NCBI GenBank assembly: GCA_900770385.1
Contig: CAAGKK010000044.1
Location: forward strand, 23,149-87,148
Direction of reading: 5' to 3'
DNA: 64,000 nt
DNA from: Clostridia bacterium
GTDB taxonomy: Bacteria; Bacillota; Clostridia; TANB77; CAG-508
Shown here: positions 5,226-60,870 of the stretch, one piece after another
How the letters are laid out: the number at the start of each line of letters is the position of its first letter
How positions within the stretch are numbered: the first letter of the stretch is position 1
Notes under the pieces: generated by a model
The model's input: only the letters and a program-made list of their open reading frames with translations
The model's database searches: none
Told to the model about the DNA's origin: nothing
Program-made: the position numbers and the translations under genes

Positions 5226-5230
5226 AAATT

Positions 5231-5292
5231 AAAAATGAATAATATACATGTAGGGGCGGAACCCTGTGTCCGCCCCTGCTACGAAGAAATAC
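5231..5292 (+). repeat. GC-rich hairpin repeat, copy A
   Basis: AAAAATGAATAATATACATGTA-GGGGCGGA-ACCCTGTG-TCCGCCCC-TGCTACGAAGAAATAC; starts 6 nt after the pgk stop. Confidence 0.85.
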
Positions 5293-10136: not shown

Positions 10137-10169
10137 TAGAGTTGCAAAATGAAATGCAACTCTATTTTT
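10137..10169 (+). terminator. Rho-independent terminator
   Basis: TAGAGTTGCA / TGCAACTCTA stem followed by a T-run. Confidence 0.8.
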
Positions 10170-10171
10170 AT

Positions 10172-10200
10172 TCTGTCCGCCCGTGCTACTTAATAAAGAA
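10172..10200 (+). repeat. GC-rich repeat, partial copy D (right half only)
   Basis: CTGTCCGCCCGTGCTAC matches the right arm and tail of copies A/C/E. Confidence 0.6.
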
Positions 10201-11265: not shown

Positions 11266-11298
11266 ATGTATATAGGGGAGGTCAGCCTCTGTCAGCCC
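11266..11298 (+). repeat. GC-rich repeat, degenerate copy F
   Basis: ATGTATATAGGGGAGGTCAGCCTCTGTCAGCCC aligns with copy E; the stem is no longer self-complementary. Confidence 0.55.
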
Positions 11299-11326
11299 AA
11301 GCGGAATTTATTCCGCTTTATTTTTT
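11299..11326 (+). terminator. Rho-independent terminator after ldh
   Basis: AGCGGAA-TTTA-TTCCGCT followed by TTTATTTTTT. Confidence 0.8.
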
Positions 11327-11333
11327 ACCAAAT

Positions 11334-13940: not shown

Positions 13941-14011
13941 ATGCAGAAGAATATGTTCTGTTTTTTAGAACATATAATTAAGAAGTCAACCAAAGAATGG
14001 TTGGCTTTTTT

Positions 14012-14046
14012 ATATAGTAGAAAATTTCTCATTTGCTATTATATAA
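14012..14046 (-). repeat. 35-bp palindromic repeat, copy 1 (inverted orientation, 2 stem mismatches)
   Basis: TATATAGTAGAAAATTTCTCATTTGCTATTATATA directly after the T-run of the terminator at ~13985-14011. Confidence 0.7.
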
Positions 14047-14213: not shown

Positions 14214-15092
14214 ATGTCTAAAAAGAAAAATATAAAAATAGAATTACCAATAGATGAAATAGTAGAAAAATGGGAGCAGGGTACTACACAACAAGAACTT
14301 GCAAAAGAATATAGACTCTCTATAAGAACTATTAATAGAAGAATATCTGAATATTATGAAAAGGAAGGAAAACAAAAACCAAAACGAAAAATAGAAATAC
14401 CAATAGATGAAATAGTAAAGAAATGGGAACAAGGTGTTATAGAAAAAGAACTTGCGAAAGAGTATGGAGTTTCACAAACTACTATTAATAACAGAATATC
14501 TGAATATTACAAAAGGGAAGGAAAACAAAGACCTAAAAAAGAATTGAACCCAAAAATAGAATTACCAATAGAAGAAATAGTAGAGAAATGGAAGCAAGGT
14601 ACCATACAACAAGAACTTGCAAAAGAATATGGAGTTTCAACAACTACCATTACTAAAAGAATAGCAGAATATTACGAAAAAAAAGGAAATAAAAAAACAA
14701 AACCTAAAATAAAATCAAAACAAAAAATAGAGTTATCAATAGATGAAATAGTAAAAAAATGGGAAGAAGGTAGTACACAAACAGAACTTGCAAAAGAATA
14801 TGGTATTTCGTTAACCACTATTAGTAGCAGAATATCTGAATACAATAGAGAAAAAGAAATAAAAACAAAATTACTCAATTATGAAAGTGCCGAAAATAAT
14901 GGAAAGAAATTAAAAATTATGAGAAGTTCATCAATCATTGCAGAGTATTTAAGAAAAGGATTAACAATAGAACAGATAAAAAATATTGCACTAGAAAGAA
15001 ATATTATAATACCACAAAAAGTTATTGAAAAAGCAATTCAAAGAAATGAACAACTAGAAAAAAATAAAGAAGAAGAATCAAGTGAGAGATAA
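14214..15092 (+). CDS. Protein with four tandem helix-turn-helix modules (putative DNA-binding)
   Basis: Four 51-57 aa repeats IE(L/I)PI(D/E)EIV(E/K)KW(E/K)(Q/E)G...ELAKEYG(V/I)S..TI..RI(S/A)EY followed by Lys-rich linkers. Confidence 0.75.
   Translation: MSKKKNIKIELPIDEIVEKWEQGTTQQELAKEYRLSIRTINRRISEYYEKEGKQKPKRKIEIPIDEIVKKWEQGVIEKELAKEYGVSQTTINNRISEYYKREGKQRPKKELNPKIELPIEEIVEKWKQGTIQQELAKEYGVSTTTITKRIAEYYEKKGNKKTKPKIKSKQKIELSIDEIVKKWEEGSTQTELAKEYGISLTTISSRISEYNREKEIKTKLLNYESAENNGKKLKIMRSSSIIAEYLRKGLTIEQIKNIALERNIIIPQKVIEKAIQRNEQLEKNKEEESSER
14238..14858 (+). repeat. Intragenic tandem repeat, 4 units of ~153-171 bp
   Basis: Units start at 14238, 14391, 14556 and 14727. Confidence 0.8.
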
Positions 15093-23043: not shown

Positions 23044-24429
23044 ATGGGAGGAATAATATTGAAAACAACAAAAAAAAGATTAAAACTAGCATTATTAATT
23101 TTAATTTGTATGGCAATCATTTTGGTAGGTTTTTGTGGAATATATGTAAAAGATAAAAACAAATATTCAAACAAAATACCTAACTATAAATTAGCAACAG
23201 ATTTAAAAGGAACAACAGTATTAGAACTAGATGTAGATACTTCAACAAATAAAAATTACTATGATTCAGAAGGAAAAAAAGTTGATTCTTCTGAAGTAAC
23301 AGATGAGAATAAAAGTAATTATACTGAAAAAGAAGAAAAAGTAAATTTAGATGAGAATCTAACTAAAGATAATTATGAAAAAACTTTAAATATATTAAAA
23401 GAAAGATTAAAATTCTTAAAAGTAGATCAATATAGTTTAGATTTAGATACCAAAACAGGAAAAATTGTTTTAAACTTTGCAGATGAATATCCAGATGATG
23501 TAAAGTCTATTTTGCCAATGGAAGGAAAGCTTGAATTAATAGATTCAAACACAAAAGATGTTTTAATAGAAAATTCTAGTATAAAATCATTAGAAACTAC
23601 ATATGCATCAACAGACGATGGATACACGGTATACTTAAATCTAAAATTAAACAAAGAAGGAATAGACAAAATTAATGGCATAGATGGATACAAAACTACA
23701 ACAGACGATAATGGGGAAGTATCAACAAACAAGCTTAAAGTACAATTTGATACAGACGAAATAGCAGAAGTATCTTATGATAATATGGAATTAATAGGAA
23801 AAACATTAAGAGTTACATTAGCAAGTAATATAACATCAAATTCAACATTTACTTCCAAAATGAACACTGCTACTGTAGTTTCTAAATTAACTACAATAGG
23901 AAAAACACCATTAGTATATAAAATAACAGCAGAAGAATATTTAAAAACAAATGTAGATACTAAAGTGGTTTATGGAGCATTAATTGTAACAGCAGTATTA
24001 TTAGTTGCTACATTTATTACATGGATCATTAAATATAAGATGAACGGATTACTAGCTGTAATAGGAACTCTTACCAATATATCTTTAATGACAATCGTAA
24101 TTAGATATACTAATATAGAAATATCATTAAACTCATTATCAGCAATTATAGGATTATTTGTAGTAAACACATATTTAGTAAGTAATATACTAACACATAT
24201 TAAAAATGAAGAAAAAACATTTGCAGAAAATATACAACATGCATATTTAAAATCAATAGATGTATTAATAATAAGTTTATTAATGTTTGTTGTATTTGCA
24301 TTTAGTAAGATGACAGTAATCAATTCTATGGGATTATTATTCTTCTGGGGATGGTTAACAATTGTTCTAGGAAATTTATTATTTACGGTTCCTATGTTAT
24401 ATGTAAAAAGTAGGGAGGTAAGCAAATAA
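23044..24429 (+). CDS. SecD-like membrane protein (divergent)
   Basis: N-terminal TM, large periplasmic-type domain (ATDLKGTTVLELDVD), C-terminal 5-6 TM bundle; probable TTG start at 23059 after GGGAGGA. Confidence 0.5.
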   Translation: MGGIILKTTKKRLKLALLILICMAIILVGFCGIYVKDKNKYSNKIPNYKLATDLKGTTVLELDVDTSTNKNYYDSEGKKVDSSEVTDENKSNYTEKEEKVNLDENLTKDNYEKTLNILKERLKFLKVDQYSLDLDTKTGKIVLNFADEYPDDVKSILPMEGKLELIDSNTKDVLIENSSIKSLETTYASTDDGYTVYLNLKLNKEGIDKINGIDGYKTTTDDNGEVSTNKLKVQFDTDEIAEVSYDNMELIGKTLRVTLASNITSNSTFTSKMNTATVVSKLTTIGKTPLVYKITAEEYLKTNVDTKVVYGALIVTAVLLVATFITWIIKYKMNGLLAVIGTLTNISLMTIVIRYTNIEISLNSLSAIIGLFVVNTYLVSNILTHIKNEEKTFAENIQHAYLKSIDVLIISLLMFVVFAFSKMTVINSMGLLFFWGWLTIVLGNLLFTVPMLYVKSREVSK

Positions 24430-25061
24430 TGAAAAAAATAACAGAAAACAAAAAAATATTGATTATTGCAATATTAATTATAATAGTAGCAGGTATAATA
24501 TTTTTAGCAGTTAAAGGATTTAACAAAGGTATTATTTATGACTCTGCAACAAGAATAGAATGCTATATACCATCAGGATATGAAAAAGCAGATATAGAAA
24601 ATATTACAAATGAAACTTTTAGTAATAAAAATGTAACAGTGCAAGACATTGAAAAGTTAAACCAAATGGTTTCAATAAAAATAAAAGATTATAGTGAAGA
24701 AGAGTTAGAAAACTTTAAAACAAAAATTTCTGAAAAATATGGAATAGACAAAGACAAATTAGAAATATATGAAATAAAAATACCTACAACTAGAATTAGT
24801 ACAATAGTAAAACCTTATGTATTACCAGTAAGTATTGTAACAGTGTTATCTTTAGTTTATATTGCATTAAGAAATATAAAAAGTAAAGAGGCTGTAAAGA
24901 AAGTTATAAAAGTTGCATTAACATTAGTATTAGTAGCTGGTATATACTTTAGTATATTAGTAATAGCTCAAATACCAATTAATGAATATACAATGCCAAT
25001 AGCTTTAATGTTGTATGTACTAACTTTATTAATTGAAGTAATAAAACTAAATAAAGAATAA
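24429..25061 (+). CDS. SecF-like membrane protein (short, divergent)
   Basis: Start overlaps the upstream stop (ATAATG); N-terminal TM, small extracytoplasmic domain and ~3 C-terminal TM; only 210 aa. Confidence 0.4.
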   Translation: MKKITENKKILIIAILIIIVAGIIFLAVKGFNKGIIYDSATRIECYIPSGYEKADIENITNETFSNKNVTVQDIEKLNQMVSIKIKDYSEEELENFKTKISEKYGIDKDKLEIYEIKIPTTRISTIVKPYVLPVSIVTVLSLVYIALRNIKSKEAVKKVIKVALTLVLVAGIYFSILVIAQIPINEYTMPIALMLYVLTLLIEVIKLNKE

Positions 25062-25080: not shown

Positions 25081-25121
25081 TTCTACACGGGCGGACAGAG
25101 GAGTCCGCCCATATATACGAT
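25081..25121 (-). repeat. GC-rich hairpin repeat, copy E (between convergent genes)
   Basis: Minus strand reads TCGTATATAT-GGGCGGAC-TCCTCT-GTCCGCCC-GTGTAGAA and starts 1 nt after the mutS2 stop. Confidence 0.8.
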
Positions 25122-31678: not shown

Positions 31679-34523
31679 ATTAAAAGTTCATGAATTAGCA
31701 AAAGAATTAGGAAAAACGAGCAAAGATATTATCGCAATAGCACAAAGCTTAGGAGCAAAAGTAAACACACACATGAGTTCATTAGAAGATGATATGGTTT
31801 TAAAAATAAAAAATAAAATAAAGGGAGAAAAAACTACGGATACTAAGAATAATAAAAAAGAAGAAGCAAAAGAAGTAAAAAAAGAGAAAAATGAAAGTCC
31901 AGTAATTATTAGAAGACAAGTTATTATATCTGATGAGGAAATAAAAAAACAAGAGGAAGCAGAAAAAAAGAAAAAGCAAGAACAACAAAGAAATAGTCAA
32001 GTCGGTTTTGTAGAAAGAAATAGAAATAAAGACTATAACATTGTATATAGAAATAAACCAACTAAACCTATGACTGTTAGTGAATTATTTGGATTGAAAG
32101 ACAATAAAAAAGAAGAAAAGAAAGAAGTTGTGGAAAAAGAAGAAAAAGTTTCTGCAGAGCCAACAGTTAAAGAAGAAGTAAAAAAAGAACCACAAGTACA
32201 ATCTAATAATAGACCAAATAATAATTACGAAAATAGAAATAATAATCAATATATGAACAACAGAAATAATCAATATAATAATAGAAACAATAATATGAAC
32301 AGAGCAAACAACAATAATCAATATAATAACAATAGAAATAACAATAATTATCAAAGAAATAATAATAACAATAATGGTCGTCCTACATTTAATAATAGAA
32401 ATAATAATAATTATCATAAAAGGCCACTTGATGAAAAGGGTATAGAGAAAAATATTAAAAATATAATGTCAAGTGATATAATAGAAAAAGATAGTGTTAG
32501 AGATTATAATAATAAAAATGCTAATAAACAAAAAAATAATAATAGATATGATGAAAATAAGGCAAAGAAACCAAATAAAAATAGAAGAAATGTTTCAGAG
32601 TTTGATGAAGATAAATTAAAAAGCTTAAAACAAGAAAGAAGCTTGTCTAATATGTTTAATGATCAAGAAGGTGGAATGCTTGATTATTATGATTTAACTA
32701 CTGCAAGAGGAAGAAAAAATAAAAGAAGAATTAATAAAAATGATGAAGAAAGAACAAAACAAAAAATATTCCAATTAACAGAAATAACAATTCCTGAAAC
32801 TATTTCTGTTAAAGATTTTGCAGCAGAAATTAAGAAAACTAGTGGAGAAGTTATTAAAAAATTATTGGGCTATGGAATTATGGCAACAATAAATAATGAT
32901 ATTGATTTCGATACAGCATTTTTAATTGCTGAAGAGTTTGGAATTAAAGCTATAAAGAAAGAAACTGTAACAGAAGAAGATATATTATTTGATGAAAGTG
33001 AAGATTCAGCAGAAGAATTAGAAGCAAGACCACCAGTAATAGTTGTAATGGGGCATGTTGATCATGGTAAAACATCATTACTAGATGCTATTAGAAGCAC
33101 AAATGTAATAGAAGGAGAAGCAGGAGGAATTACACAACATATAGGTGCATCACAAGTAGAAGTAAATGGAAGAATGATTACTTTCTTAGATACACCTGGA
33201 CATGAAGCATTTACAAGCATGAGGGCCAGAGGAGCTCAAGTTACAGATATTGCAATACTTGTAGTAGCAGCAAACGATGGTGTAAAACCACAAACAGTAG
33301 AAGCTATCAATCATGCTAAAGCAGCAGGAATACCAATAATAGTAGCAGTAAATAAAATAGATCTTGAAGGTGCTAATGTAGAAAAAGTTAAAGAAGAATT
33401 AACGAAATATGAATTAGTACCAGAAGAATGGGGAGGAGATACAATTTTTGTTCCAATATCTGCTAAAAAGAAAATAAATATAGATACTTTACTAGAAATG
33501 GTATTATTAGTAGCAGATATGAAAGAATTAAAAGCTAATCCAAACAAACAATCTAAAGGTGTTGTAATAGAAGCTAAATTGGATAAAACAAGAGGACCAG
33601 TAGCAACAATGCTTGTACAAAGAGGAACATTAGATGTTGGAGATACAATTGTTGTTGGATCTGTTATTGGTAGAATAAGAGCTATGACAAACTTTAAAGG
33701 TAAAAAGGTTAAAAAAGCAGGACCTTCTATGCCAGTTGAGATTGTAGGACTAACAGAAGTTCCAGTTGCTGGAGAAACTTTCTATGAAGTCGAAGATGAA
33801 AAAACAGCAAAACATTTAATAGAAAGAAGAAAACGCCAAGAAAGAGAAAAATCTATTAATAGTACAGCAAAGGTTTCTCTAAATGATTTATTTAATCAAA
33901 TAGAAAAAGGAAAATTAAAAGAATTAAATATTATAGTAAAAGCAGATGTACAAGGTAGTGTTGAAGCTGTAAAACAAAGCTTAGAAAAATTATCTAATGA
34001 TCAAGTTCAAGTAAAAGTAATTCATGCTAATGTTGGTGGGGTTACAGAAACAGATGTAACACTTGCCAAAGTTTCAAATGCAATTATAATAGCATTCAAT
34101 GTAAGACCAGAGCCATTAGCAAGAGATATGGCAGATAAAGAAGAAGTTGAAATAAAACAATATTCAGTTATTTATCATGCTATAGAAGATATAGAAGCTG
34201 CAATGAAGGGAATGTTAGATCCAGAATTTGAAGAAAAAGTTATTGGAAATGCAGAAATAAGACAAACATTTAAAGTTTCAAATGTTGGAACTATTGCCGG
34301 ATGCTATGTAACAAATGGAAAAGTTTCAAGAAATGCAGGAATAAGAATAATAAGAGACAATGTTGTTATACATGAAGGAAAACTAATATCATTAAAGAGA
34401 TTTAAAGATGATGTAAAAGAAGTAGCAACAGGATATGAATGTGGTATTCAAATAGAAAACTTTAATGACATAAAAGAAGGAGATATCTTAGAAGTGTATG
34501 TTATGGAGGAAATTAAAAAATAA
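31656..34523 (+). CDS. infB: Translation initiation factor IF-2 (start somewhere in 31656-31671)
   Basis: [11 protein letters not shown]-terminus; [22 protein letters not shown]-domain; long Asn-rich insert. Confidence 0.95.
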
Positions 34524-34586
34524 ATAATGAATAATATGCATGTATGGGCGGAACCCCGTGTCCGCCCGCAACCCGCGAGGAATACT
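34524..34586 (+). repeat. GC-rich hairpin repeat, copy B
   Basis: ATAATGAATAATATGCATGTAT-GGGCGGA-ACCCCGTG-TCCGCCC-GCAACCCGCGAGGAATAC; starts at the first nt after the infB stop. Confidence 0.85.
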
Positions 34587-37562: not shown

Positions 37563-37569
37563 ATTTTTT

Positions 37570-37604
37570 TATATAGTAGGAAATGAGAAATTTCCTACTA
37601 TATA
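37570..37604 (+). repeat. 35-bp perfect palindromic repeat, copy 2
   Basis: TATATAGTAGGAAAT-GAGAA-ATTTCCTACTATATA directly after the terminator T-run. Confidence 0.85.
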
Positions 37605-47134: not shown

Positions 47135-47179
47135 AATACTATAAAAAAGAAAGCTTAAAATACATTATGCTTTCTTTTT

Positions 47180-47212
47180 TATATAGTAGAAAATGAGAAA
47201 TTTTCTACTATA
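47180..47212 (+). repeat. Palindromic repeat, copy 3
   Basis: TATATAGTAGAAAAT-GAGAA-ATTTTCTACTATA directly after the terminator T-run. Confidence 0.8.
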
Positions 47213-51879: not shown

Positions 51880-51945
51880 AAAATGAATAATATCCGTGTA
51901 GGGGGCGGACAGCTCTGTTTGCCCGCTGGCTACGAAGAAACACTA
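51880..51945 (+). repeat. GC-rich hairpin repeat, copy C
   Basis: AAAAATGAATAATATCCGTGTA-GGGGGCGGACAGCTCTGTTTGCCCGC-TGGCTACGAAGAAACAC; starts at the first nt after the stop at 51877-51879. Confidence 0.8.
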
Positions 51946-52017: not shown

Positions 52018-53844
<1,827 letters not shown>

Positions 53845-58485: not shown

Positions 58486-60870
58486 ATGAAAGTTTTATTT
58501 GCTGTTAGTAATGAAAATATATCTACACAAATAGTAAAAAGATATCAAAAAGAATATAAAGAAATAATATCATATAAGAATATGTATTATTTTAATGCTG
58601 TTGTAAAAGAACTTCAAAGAGATAAATCTTACGACAGAATAGTTATAGGAGAAGATCTAGAACCATTTTCTAATAATAACTATGATGCTATAGATAAATT
58701 TATATTTGATAAATTAGACAGTATTAGTGATGAAGCAACAGGTAGTGAAGGAGATATTCCAATTATTTTAATATGCGCAGATAGAAGAGCAAAAGCAGAT
58801 CCAATGTTAGTAAAATTATTTGGATTAGGAATATATAATGCGCTATTAGGACCAGATAAAAGTATAGAAAATGTATGCAAGATGATTAACAGACCTCGTA
58901 GCAAAAAAGAAGCTAAAATTTATTATAAAATAGATTCAGATGAAGTTAATTATCAAAGTGAAAATGAAGATACTGTTAGTGAAGTAGAAATAAAAAATAT
59001 ATTAGCTCATTATAAGAGATTGGGAAAAAATGAAGATAGATATGTAGAAAGCTTTAATAATATTGCTGCACAATATAATGATGCACAATTAAGAATTATA
59101 ACAAAATTCTTACCATTAAATGTAAAAGCAGTTTTAGAAGAGCAATCTCCTAAATATCAATCAGTTATGACATTTGGAGATACTGCTTCAGCTATAAACA
59201 GCAGTATGAATCAACAAAAGAAAAAAGATGAAGGTTTAAAAATGGGCTTCTTAAATACTAATAGTGGAAGACCAACTAGACCAGTAATTGTGCCAACAGC
59301 TGTTAATAAAGCAGGAAGAAAAATAGGAACATCTGCAGTTCAACAACAGCAACCTCAAGTTCAAAGAACAATAAATCAAAATTCTTATCAAACTGGTAAC
59401 AATTATTCACCAGCAAGACCTGCTCAAATGCCAAGAATGCCGGAACCTGAAATTGCACCAGTTATGCCAGAACCTGAAGAAGATTTTGAAACAGTAGAAA
59501 TGAATACACCTTCTGTACCAGTTGTAGAAGAAGTACAACCAGTAAAAAGAGGAAGGGGTAGACCTAAGAAAAATGTAGAGCCTATTGAACAAATTGAAAA
59601 CAAACCAAAAAGAGGAAGAGGTAGACCTAAAAAAGTAGTAGAAGAACCAGTGTTACCAGGCTTTGACGAAGACGAAGAACCAACACTACCAGGTTTTGAA
59701 GATCAAAATGAAGAACCAACATTGCCAGGTTTTGATGTATCAAACAGCGAACCAACTTTACCAGGTTTCGATGAACCAGAAGAAGAAATGACTTTACCAG
59801 GATTTGATAATGTTCAAGAAAAACAAGATACTATGTTACCAGGCTTTGATACACCACAAACAATGTCAAATAATAATGTTAACCAATATTCAAGACCAGA
59901 GCCAAGTGGAACAATGTCAAGTTATGGATCAACAAATTCACTTTCTAACTATTCTAATAGCTCTAGTAATTCATACTATTCAAATTCTAGTATGAGTGCA
60001 ACAAATCTATTATCAAAAGATAAGAAAGTTGTAGCATTTGTTGGAACTACTAAAAATGGAACATCATTCTTAGTAAATAATTTAGGAAAAACATGTGCTA
60101 GTATGGGAATAAAAACGGCTATATTAGACTTAACCACAAATAGAAACTCATATTATATATTTACAAATAATGATGAAAAATTAAGAGGAATAGCATATGA
60201 ATCTATAAAAAAACTAAGAAGCGGTATAGCAAGTGGAATAGCAGCAGATAAAAACTTAGATGTATATACAGCTTTACCAGATGATAGAAATGTTCCTTTA
60301 CAAGATGTTAATGGAATATTATCAACTTTAATTCAAAATTATTCTTTAGTGTTAATGGATTGCGATTTCTCAACACCAGTAGAATATTTTGGAGCAACTC
60401 AAGAAATTTATATAGTACAAAGTTTAGATATTCTTACAATACAACCAATGACAGCATTTTTAAGGGATTTAAAGAGTAAAGAGATATTAAGAGAAGAAAA
60501 AATAAGGGTTATTATTAATAAAGAAGTAAGAGTAAGAGGATTAACACCAAAAGCAATAATTGGTGGACTAGCATTTTATAATGATCCATCAATGTCATTT
60601 ATGACAGAATTATTTAATAAAGATAATGTAAAATACTGTACAGTGCCTTTTGATGAAATAACATATATAAAATATTTGGAAAATGTTATGGACTGCGAAA
60701 TATCAACAAATGGATATTCTAGAGAATTTAATATGAAGATGAAAGAGTTAGCAAGCATGGTATATCCTTTAATTGGAAATAAGTATAAGCCAGTTGGAGA
60801 CTATTCTTCTAATAATAGGTTCTCTTCTAATATGAATAGTACATTGGAACAAATGAAAAGAAATTATTAA
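58486..60870 (+). CDS. Receiver-like N-domain, AT-hooks (x2), LPGF(D/E) motifs (x6), Ser/Asn-rich linker and atypical ParA/MinD (TadZ/CpaE-like) domain
   Basis: MKVLFAVSNE...DRIVIGEDLEP...IPIILICA (CheY-like layout); KRGRGRPKK twice; KVVAFVGTTKNGTSFLVNNLG atypical P-loop; LVLMDCDF Walker-B-like. Confidence 0.7.
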   Translation: MKVLFAVSNENISTQIVKRYQKEYKEIISYKNMYYFNAVVKELQRDKSYDRIVIGEDLEPFSNNNYDAIDKFIFDKLDSISDEATGSEGDIPIILICADRRAKADPMLVKLFGLGIYNALLGPDKSIENVCKMINRPRSKKEAKIYYKIDSDEVNYQSENEDTVSEVEIKNILAHYKRLGKNEDRYVESFNNIAAQYNDAQLRIITKFLPLNVKAVLEEQSPKYQSVMTFGDTASAINSSMNQQKKKDEGLKMGFLNTNSGRPTRPVIVPTAVNKAGRKIGTSAVQQQQPQVQRTINQNSYQTGNNYSPARPAQMPRMPEPEIAPVMPEPEEDFETVEMNTPSVPVVEEVQPVKRGRGRPKKNVEPIEQIENKPKRGRGRPKKVVEEPVLPGFDEDEEPTLPGFEDQNEEPTLPGFDVSNSEPTLPGFDEPEEEMTLPGFDNVQEKQDTMLPGFDTPQTMSNNNVNQYSRPEPSGTMSSYGSTNSLSNYSNSSSNSYYSNSSMSATNLLSKDKKVVAFVGTTKNGTSFLVNNLGKTCASMGIKTAILDLTTNRNSYYIFTNNDEKLRGIAYESIKKLRSGIASGIAADKNLDVYTALPDDRNVPLQDVNGILSTLIQNYSLVLMDCDFSTPVEYFGATQEIYIVQSLDILTIQPMTAFLRDLKSKEILREEKIRVIINKEVRVRGLTPKAIIGGLAFYNDPSMSFMTELFNKDNVKYCTVPFDEITYIKYLENVMDCEISTNGYSREFNMKMKELASMVYPLIGNKYKPVGDYSSNNRFSSNMNSTLEQMKRNY
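59650..59850 (+). repeat. Six short-motif repeats encoding (E)P(T/V/M)LPGF(D/E) in an acidic linker
   Basis: TTACCAGG(C/T/A)TT(T/C)GA recurs at 59653, 59686, 59722, 59758, 59794 and 59836. Confidence 0.9.

Follow-up and report, generated by a model that had tools for sequence, protein, structure and literature searches.

The 64-kb window analysed here (64,000 nucleotides (nt) of contig CAAGKK010000044.1, assembly GCA_900770385.1) belongs to an uncultured bacterium whose proteins find exact matches in many human-gut assemblies, Hadza samples included. The host lineage has a G+C content of about 27%, the closest of its named relatives carry the label Clostridium sp. or Clostridia, and the window itself averages 24–31% G+C. 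Six of the nine GC-rich islands of the window are members of a single family of dispersed hairpins. Copies A and B lie within conserved operons, in the pgk-tpiA and infB-rbfA spacers, respectively; copy C follows a G5/SH3/glucosaminidase gene and copy E lies beside mutS2. Copies A to F had been proposed in a sequence-only reading of the window, and their sequences read as described there. A covariance model built from 30 family members and run over the whole window with filters off matched five elements, namely A, B, C, E and a copy that the sequence-only reading had missed, G; D and F are relics, and copy D, of which the right half only is present, was not matched by the model over the window. 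When GGGCGGA-N8-TCCGCCC was searched with at most three mismatches, the window gave five matches, against 0.01 expected from dinucleotide-preserving shuffles. Since the covariance scores are about 40 bits higher in sense than in antisense, the orientation of the hairpins is well defined.

The core of every good copy is (T)GTAG-GGGCGGA-8 nt-TCCGCCC (unit 22 nt, stem 7–8 bp). GGG...CCC forms the stem base in all copies, and the stems of A, B and E are perfect, as the sequence-only reading had stated. GTAG stands immediately 5' of GGGCGGA or of a one-base variant in 20 of 30 aligned family members; CTAC is found 3–4 nt beyond the stem in copies A, C and D, and a CTAC-containing tail in about 14 of some 42 related copies. 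Two main subtypes are distinguished by their loops, ACCC(C/T)GTG and CGCCTCTG. A 5' GT[AG]G tag, a short GC-rich palindrome and dispersed, mainly extragenic copies are the characters of repetitive extragenic palindromes (REPs), while three G-C pairs at the stem base and a double foot are those of the REPs that go with subclass 2.4 of the RayT (TnpA_REP) transposases. This subclass corresponds to RAYT group 4 of Bertels et al.; its REPs are described as canonical and long, with 5' GT[AG]G and three G-C pairs at the stem base, or as "double-foot" (GT[AG]G...C[TC]AC), they are found in frame within tnpA_REP between HuH and Y, and the subclass is patchy over many phyla (Quentin et al. 2018, PMC6006769). 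RAYT group 4 has been reported from 17 bacterial classes (Bertels et al. 2017, PMC5581495), and a GTAG super-family of REPs, in-frame gene insertions included, has been delineated (Di Nocera et al. 2013, PMC3733652). The hairpins of the window are thus probably GTAG-tagged double-foot REP elements of the RayT subclass 2.4/RAYT group 4 type, with a RayT-linked mode of spread. A family that the sequence-only reading had been unable to match to any name can hence be named, and of the roles that it had listed, the REP-like or MITE-like (miniature inverted-repeat transposable element) mobile element is the one that the evidence (GTAG tag, double foot, RayT association) supports.

The distribution of the hairpin was probed by scanning one representative genome for each of 185,579 species for TGTA-N1-3-GGGCGGA-N7-9-TCCGCCC. 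This yielded at least 138 matches in at least 120 species-representative genomes, and the hosts of the listed matches include Acidobacteriota, Chloroflexi, Clostridia, Bacteroidota, several proteobacterial classes, Poribacteria and others. Although left unconstrained, the base after TGTA is G in 124 of the 138 listed matches. Of these matches, 132 are paired at stem position 8 (C-G 94, T-A 26, G-C 7, A-T 5), whereas in shuffles the mean is 73 and the highest count 83. Pairing beyond that of shuffles and the G after TGTA indicate that the hairpin is widespread, that its structure is maintained and that it is GTAG-tagged. A literature search with the literal hairpin sequence retrieved unrelated eukaryotic oligonucleotides only. 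The ATGTAG-GGGCGGA...TCCGCCC hairpin was also found in 29 viral contigs of IMG/VR (L182–L210); one of these, L187, carries two inverted copies 2.5 kb apart in a run of six forward-strand open reading frames (ORFs), the first between two of the six and the second after the last.

The ORFs flanking the hairpin in the listed genomes, at least 120 in number, were clustered all-against-all. No protein family was consistently found beside the hairpin among these genomes, save for RayT-like ORFs that contain it, so that a conserved hairpin-adjacent protein family is ruled out for the listed loci. At four of these loci the hairpin lies in frame inside a Y1_Tnp/REP_Tyr_transpos-like ORF. The RayT-like ORFs display the motifs RLxxYDYSxxGAYFIT, PNHIH (the HUH motif) and WQRNYYEHIIRNE, and match Pfam Y1_Tnp. 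Their best NCBIfam match is REP_Tyr_transpos, at 67.6 bits versus 18 bits for transpos_IS200; their profile matches the structure of E. coli TnpA_REP (PDB 4er8) and has at least 8000 database homologues, many of them named "REP element-mobilizing transposase RayT". The GGGCGGA-type hairpin of L041, L055 and L124 sits between HuH and Y, where it encodes VGADxxVRP. In both L024 and P0121, the in-frame hairpin lies upstream of HuH instead; it is the type-2 hairpin of the window organism, GGGCGGACGCCTCTGTCCGCCC, and is read as NVGADASVRP. The same peptide is met at copy G (N-V-D-A-S-V-R-P), an in-frame REP relic consisting of a type-2 hairpin minus 6 nt of the left arm.

RayT genes are found in low-GC relatives of the host. 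Four representative genomes (L016, L024, L026 and L077; 25–30% G+C), which bear the labels "uncultured Clostridium sp." or "Clostridia bacterium", are 70–79% identical in nucleotide sequence to the contigs carrying the repeat family, and the low-GC relatives that encode RayT (L024, L149–L158) show 65–80% nucleotide identity in shared genes. Several of the relatives' RayT genes are intact (P0122, P0124 and P0125; 174–180 amino acids (aa)) and several are fragmented; they contain GTAG-GGGTCGGCGTCC...GACGACCC REPs, and the same REPs are dispersed nearby. A near-copy of the type-2 hairpin stands 430 nt upstream of the RayT gene of L157. Another low-GC gut bacterium (L179–L181), which has no nucleotide similarity to the window organism, has the same arrangement of a RayT gene with its own REP. 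Short ORFs with a related C-terminal HTH_Rpn_C region lie directly downstream of the RayT genes of relatives (L155, L157, L158 and L024). L132 was considered as a RayT locus and rejected: the gene at 1045–1926, 215 nt downstream of a REP array, encodes an Rpn-like (YhgA-type) protein. Rpn-like or HTH_Rpn_C ORFs may be recurrent neighbours of RayT.

Several observations weigh against the assignment to RayT-linked subclass 2.4 REPs. Searched by tblastn with four RayT proteins, the window and 272 kb of conspecific and related contigs gave matches to hairpin-encoded peptides only and no RayT gene, and the RayT loci reached through protein databases and gene contexts belonged to relatives and to one unrelated low-GC gut bacterium, none to the window's species. 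The cognate enzyme of this species is consequently unproven, and the in-frame REPs in RayT genes, being met in other genomes, are not a demonstration for it; its RayT may be absent, the REPs then being fossils, or may lie elsewhere in the genome. The 67.6 bits of the RayT-like ORFs are below the NCBIfam equivalog cut-off of 80 bits. The inverted REP/iREP organisation of BIMEs and REPINs, which is typical of many REP families, though not of all, was not seen, apart from one inverted pair (L129). Finally, some 20 of the 22 arrays point in the same direction as the genes beside them. This co-orientation fits either a replication-strand insertion bias or selection at the RNA level: because nearly all genes of the window follow the direction of GC skew, orientation with respect to replication and to transcription is inseparable here.

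The hairpins do not stand alone. A metagenome scan for the head together with the hairpin gave 20 loci, and some 270 kb of conspecific and related contigs contain about 42 non-redundant hairpins with conserved linkers, nearly all intergenic. The sequence-only reading had taken the head and the tail as parts of a self-contained 62-nt element; they turn out to be the ends of longer conserved linker modules. The ATGAATAATAT head is the 3' end of a 57-nt AT-rich linker, hereafter called the S linker (GCAAAAATCAAATGAATAATTAATAATGAAAAATTAAAAATGAATAATATATATGTAG; ...AAATGAATAATTAATAATGAAAAATTAAAAATGAATAATATATATGTAG), which joins two hairpins head to tail. The CTACGAAGAAA tail (consensus CTAC-RAAGRAATAC) is the start of a second linker, whose long form of about 200 nt holds a nested element of about 125 nt and ends in the I module, a partly inverted form of the S linker. 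The nested element is bounded by terminal inverted repeats (TTCAGCCTACATTTTGAGCAC...GTCTCAAAATAGTCTGAA) and flanked by TATAAAT-like sequence; neither Rfam nor IMG/VR gives a match. The long linker with its nested element recurs at at least seven distinct sites with the same junctions, which indicates either that composite units are copied whole or that the nested element targets the long linker. A third recurrent 3' partner of the hairpin is a small intrinsic terminator, GAGCGGAATTTATTCCGCTTTGTT, and its pairing with the REP recurs in related contigs. On the 5' side, an AT-rich terminator-like palindrome is a recurrent partner. It is found alone at three places in the window and directly 5' of REP hairpins in related contigs (L131:5504, L134:9548 and L138:2493), which makes it a further module of the mosaic. 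The arrays are mostly direct repeats joined by the 57-nt S linker or by the linker of about 200 nt, while the solo copies A, B and C retain just 20–30 nt of leader (Table 1).

Table 1. Positions of hairpin family members and associated modules in the 64-kb window, with nested-element sites in other contigs
Feature	Position	Strand	Setting	Model match	Parts and remarks
Copy A	5226–5292	+	pgk-tpiA spacer	5244–5283, 48.1 bits	S-linker leader remnant 5226–5249, including ATGAATAATAT at 5235–5245; GTAG 5250–5253; stem GGGCGGA 5254–5260 / TCCGCCC 5269–5275; loop 5261–5268; second foot CTAC 5279–5282 (3 nt past stem); tail GAAGAAATAC 5283–5292
Copy B	34524–34586	+	infB-rbfA spacer	34536–34575, 48.1 bits	head 34527–34537; GTAT in this strain; stem-loop 34546–34567; diverged tail CCGCGAGGAATAC
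Copy C	51880–51945	+	3' of G5/SH3/glucosaminidase gene	51892–51932, 33 bits	head 51883–51893; GTAG; stem-loop 51903–51924; CTACGAAGAAACAC tail
Copy D	10173–10189 (10172–10200 in the sequence-only reading)	+	directly 3' of terminator-like hairpin 10137–10164 (flagged on minus strand, 10164–10137)		REP right half and second foot CTGTCCGCCCGTGCTAC; read directly
Copy E	25081–25121	-	between convergent ORF 24429–25061 and mutS2	25081–25120, 45.2 bits	type-2 hairpin 25089–25110, loop CTCCTCTG; ATAT at tag position in this strain
Copy F	11266–11328	+		8.1 bits (noise level)	decayed REP GGGGAGGTCAGCCTCTGTCAGCCC at 11275–11298; small terminator module AAGCGGAATTTATTCCGCTT at 11299–11318, then T run
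Copy G	52123–52162	+	within ORF 52018–53844	20.1 bits, E = 0.003	type-2 remnant at 52133–52154
G-run variation	5250–5257; 34542–34549		copies A and B		compared with L001–L008 and L159–L168
AT-rich palindromes, alone	14006–14043; 37565–37602; 47175–47212				TTTTTTATATAGTAG(G/A)AAATGAGAAATTT(C/T)CTACTATA
Nested-element sites	L001 2745–2938; L135 7288–7490; L130, L134, L137, L143, L145, L148		outside the window		

Comparison of strains reveals that units are gained and lost at fixed sites. The pgk-tpiA site carries one hairpin in six of eight strains; in L001 and L003 it carries a hairpin, 222 nt corresponding to the long linker, and a second hairpin. The inner 175 nt of the L001 insert are absent from the window and from IMG/VR. 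At another polymorphic site, L133 has two hairpins where L146 has one. At the infB-rbfA and mutS2 sites, each sampled in ten strains, the element is fixed and the stem invariant, while the G-run, the loop and the tail vary among strains. The tag varies as well: that of copy B is GTAT here and GTAG in five of ten other strains sampled, and that of copy E is ATAT here and belongs to ATAG-GGGCGGACGCCTCTGTCCGCCC in other strains. Nor is the ATG of the head invariant, one strain having CTG. The G-run between GTA and CGGA reads GGG, GGGG or GGGGGG across strains at two independent sites, as if homopolymer slippage had a small hotspot at the foot of the hairpin.

A rival explanation, parts of which the sequence-only reading had listed, is that the hairpins are kept as a cis-acting RNA element, dispersal being secondary; they would act as 3' stabilisers of the mRNA, as sites of processing or protein binding, or as pauses or attenuators between operon genes. 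Several facts speak for it. Copies A and B are within conserved operons, and stable RNA folds are predicted for them in the absence of a U tract (−24.5 kcal/mol, z −3.6, for the copy A spacer; −14.4 kcal/mol for the hairpin alone in the centroid structure of copy B). The fold of the copy E spacer has −24.2 kcal/mol (z −5.4). The stem is invariant over ten strains at infB-rbfA and mutS2 while loop and flanks vary, and the arrays are largely co-oriented with genes. E. coli REPs are reported to influence mRNA stability, attenuation and translation (for references see PMC8266576). The sequence-only reading had also noted a placement just after stop codons, and by its element boundaries the distances of 0–6 nt do hold (gene ends: pgk 5225, infB 34523, G5/SH3/glucosaminidase gene 51879, mutS2 25125 on the minus strand). 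As a rule for the family, however, gene-end placement fails, since related contigs contain arrays between divergent genes, one anti-oriented array and in-frame copies. Stop-codon adjacency is largely a matter of geometry, because spacers are short and TAA occurs in several reading frames of the AT-rich leaders; where the genome is compact and most genes point the same way, nearly any intergenic element sits just downstream of a gene. The main argument of the sequence-only reading was the G-U wobbles of copy C. Two C>T changes in the 3' arm (GGGCGGAC/GTTTGCCC) do create two G-T (G-U) pairs, but the sign of RNA selection read into them did not survive: among the 42 or so non-redundant copies, C>T changes in the 3' arm, which give G-U in the sense RNA, number about 6 and G>A changes in the 5' arm, which give A-C, about 5. 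Such similar counts indicate GC-to-AT decay rather than selection on the sense RNA, and copy C is a decaying copy. Stem covariation, similarly, is present across phyla at position 8 but absent within the lineage, no compensatory double change being found among the same copies. Rfam 15 at gathering threshold gave tRNA only for the window, and five related loci, the long linker among them, were scanned by E-value without a credible match, so that no named RNA family came to light. Since the hairpin is in frame in protein and RayT genes and is present in phage contigs and in unrelated phyla, a recognition site at the DNA level fits better, and an RNA element as the primary identity of the family is unlikely.

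The remaining explanations fare less well. That the hairpins are ordinary intrinsic terminators is suggested by their frequent position beside AT-rich terminator-like hairpins and by the tail of copy F, which the sequence-only reading rightly called a real terminator: the module and its T run are flagged as terminator-like, and the same canonical small terminator recurs in related contigs. The tail said to be shared by E and F is indeed the GAGCGGAATTTATTCCGCTTTGTT module in both, intact in F and, following the hairpin on the minus strand, damaged in E (GTGTAGAATTTATTCCGCTTT). The terminator is a separate module and not the GC hairpin, and copies A, B and C, which have no T run, as had been noted, and are unflagged as terminators, lie in operons, immediately upstream of the next gene's ribosome-binding site; a terminator identity is very improbable. 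Somewhat less remote, though still quite improbable, is an origin of the elements as MITEs or PATEs derived from IS200/IS605-type or other insertion sequences and moved by a conventional transposase. It would account for hairpin-bounded elements and for the gain and loss of units, it is in line with the genuine small terminal-inverted-repeat element nested in the linker at at least seven sites, and it shares with the REP interpretation the recognition of single-stranded DNA hairpins by HUH/Y1 enzymes. Yet no ORF of the IS200 or TnpB type adjoins any copy and no tnpA or tnpB lies between hairpins, the hairpin itself has neither terminal inverted repeats nor target duplications, the GTAG tag and double foot are REP traits, and the associated proteins are of the RayT type by their scores. 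The last explanation, a micro-ORF (MNNI...) translated from the conserved ATG by coupling to the upstream stop codon, takes its appeal from the position of the ATG, 0–9 nt after stop codons, and from the fact that in A and C it is in frame with a tail-encoded YEE(I/T)L. There is no Shine-Dalgarno sequence, however, and the ATG belongs to a non-coding linker that is repeated upstream of many hairpins. This candidate was rejected because the variation in G-run length shifts the frame between strains and one strain has CTG for ATG; next to no chance is left to it.

The REP interpretation can be situated with respect to known systems. With the REPs of subclass 2.4/group 4, the family shares the 5' GTAG at the stem foot, the three G-C pairs at the base and the 3' CTAC of the double foot, together with a dispersed, mostly extragenic distribution, in-frame occurrences in RayT and other genes, and patchiness over many phyla. 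It differs from them in that the hairpins are embedded in long conserved AT-rich linkers, mostly as direct repeats, in that a resident RayT was not located in the window and some 270 kb, and in its host, a gut lineage of about 27% G+C with relatives labelled Clostridia, which is unlike the surveyed hosts: Firmicutes are not among the REP hosts listed in two surveys, other phyla being named in one (PMC3733652) and the word being absent from the text of the other (PMC6006769). E. coli REPs and BIMEs and Pseudomonas REPINs (RAYT groups 2 and 3) likewise combine GTAG with a GC-rich palindrome, form mosaic arrays with conserved linker motifs and occur inside operons with reported effects on mRNA. 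They are inverted REP pairs, whereas the present family is mostly direct, and the stem sequence and RayT subclass differ. By description, pneumococcal BOX elements are similar in consisting of short conserved modules in variable number in the intergenic regions of a low-GC Gram-positive bacterium; they have no GTAG-tagged GC hairpin and no known link to RayT, which sets them apart. What has been found is an extension of a known family, not a new RNA element, in the form of a lineage-specific, mostly direct linker mosaic.

How such a mosaic might arise can be outlined. A RayT-type enzyme would recognise GTAG together with the folded single-stranded DNA hairpin, cut adjacent to the hairpin and join the DNA, as proposed by analogy with E. 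coli TnpA_REP (PMC8266576; PMC3479197). AT-rich leader and linker modules join the hairpins, mostly head to tail, into arrays filling intergenic spacers; hairpin-plus-linker units would be gained or lost beside existing hairpins, a process that recombination or slippage between the repeated hairpins may assist, and the copies would afterwards decay by GC-to-AT mutation. Copies A and B are probably transcribed since they lie inside the pgk-tpiA and infB-rbfA operons, and in the absence of a U tract their hairpins could, by analogy with what is reported for E. coli REPs, act as 3'-exonuclease barriers or weak attenuators. An effect on host mRNA would then possibly be a side effect rather than the reason for the existence of the family. 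A more speculative proposal, which I regard as doubtful but worth stating, is that composite units (hairpin, AT-rich linker and hairpin, sometimes with the nested element) spread as direct repeats co-oriented with transcription, possibly without a resident RayT (being trans-mobilised or fossil), and have maybe been recruited as operon-internal mRNA punctuation paired with terminators, which would amount to a distinct mode of REP spread.

Other repeats were observed in the window. The 608-aa ORF 52018–53844, which carries copy G, gives no Pfam match; it has a prepilin-like hydrophobic segment (KGITLLALIITIIVLLIL) and a good ribosome-binding site, and a (CA)15 dinucleotide run in its 5' part (52049–52078) could be a slipped-strand switch for phase variation. 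The N-terminal part of infB (32199–32373) contains N/Q-rich coding repeats with a period of 24 nt. ORF 14214–15092, which matches many helix-turn-helix families, contains four repeats of about 163 nt (14234–14885), and ORF 58486–60870 contains 36-nt repeats encoding EPTLPGF (59641–59808).

While the current understanding of REPs is unchanged, naming the repeat prevents its mis-annotation as a small RNA, a terminator or a micro-ORF in a common uncultured gut bacterium, and it adds a low-GC gut lineage with relatives labelled Clostridia to the hosts of GTAG-tagged REPs. With copy G, a surface-protein gene provides an example of a REP inserted into coding sequence, and the gain and loss of units at fixed sites between strains provides strain-typing markers. 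The family offers a natural system for how subclass 2.4 RayT enzymes move REPs.

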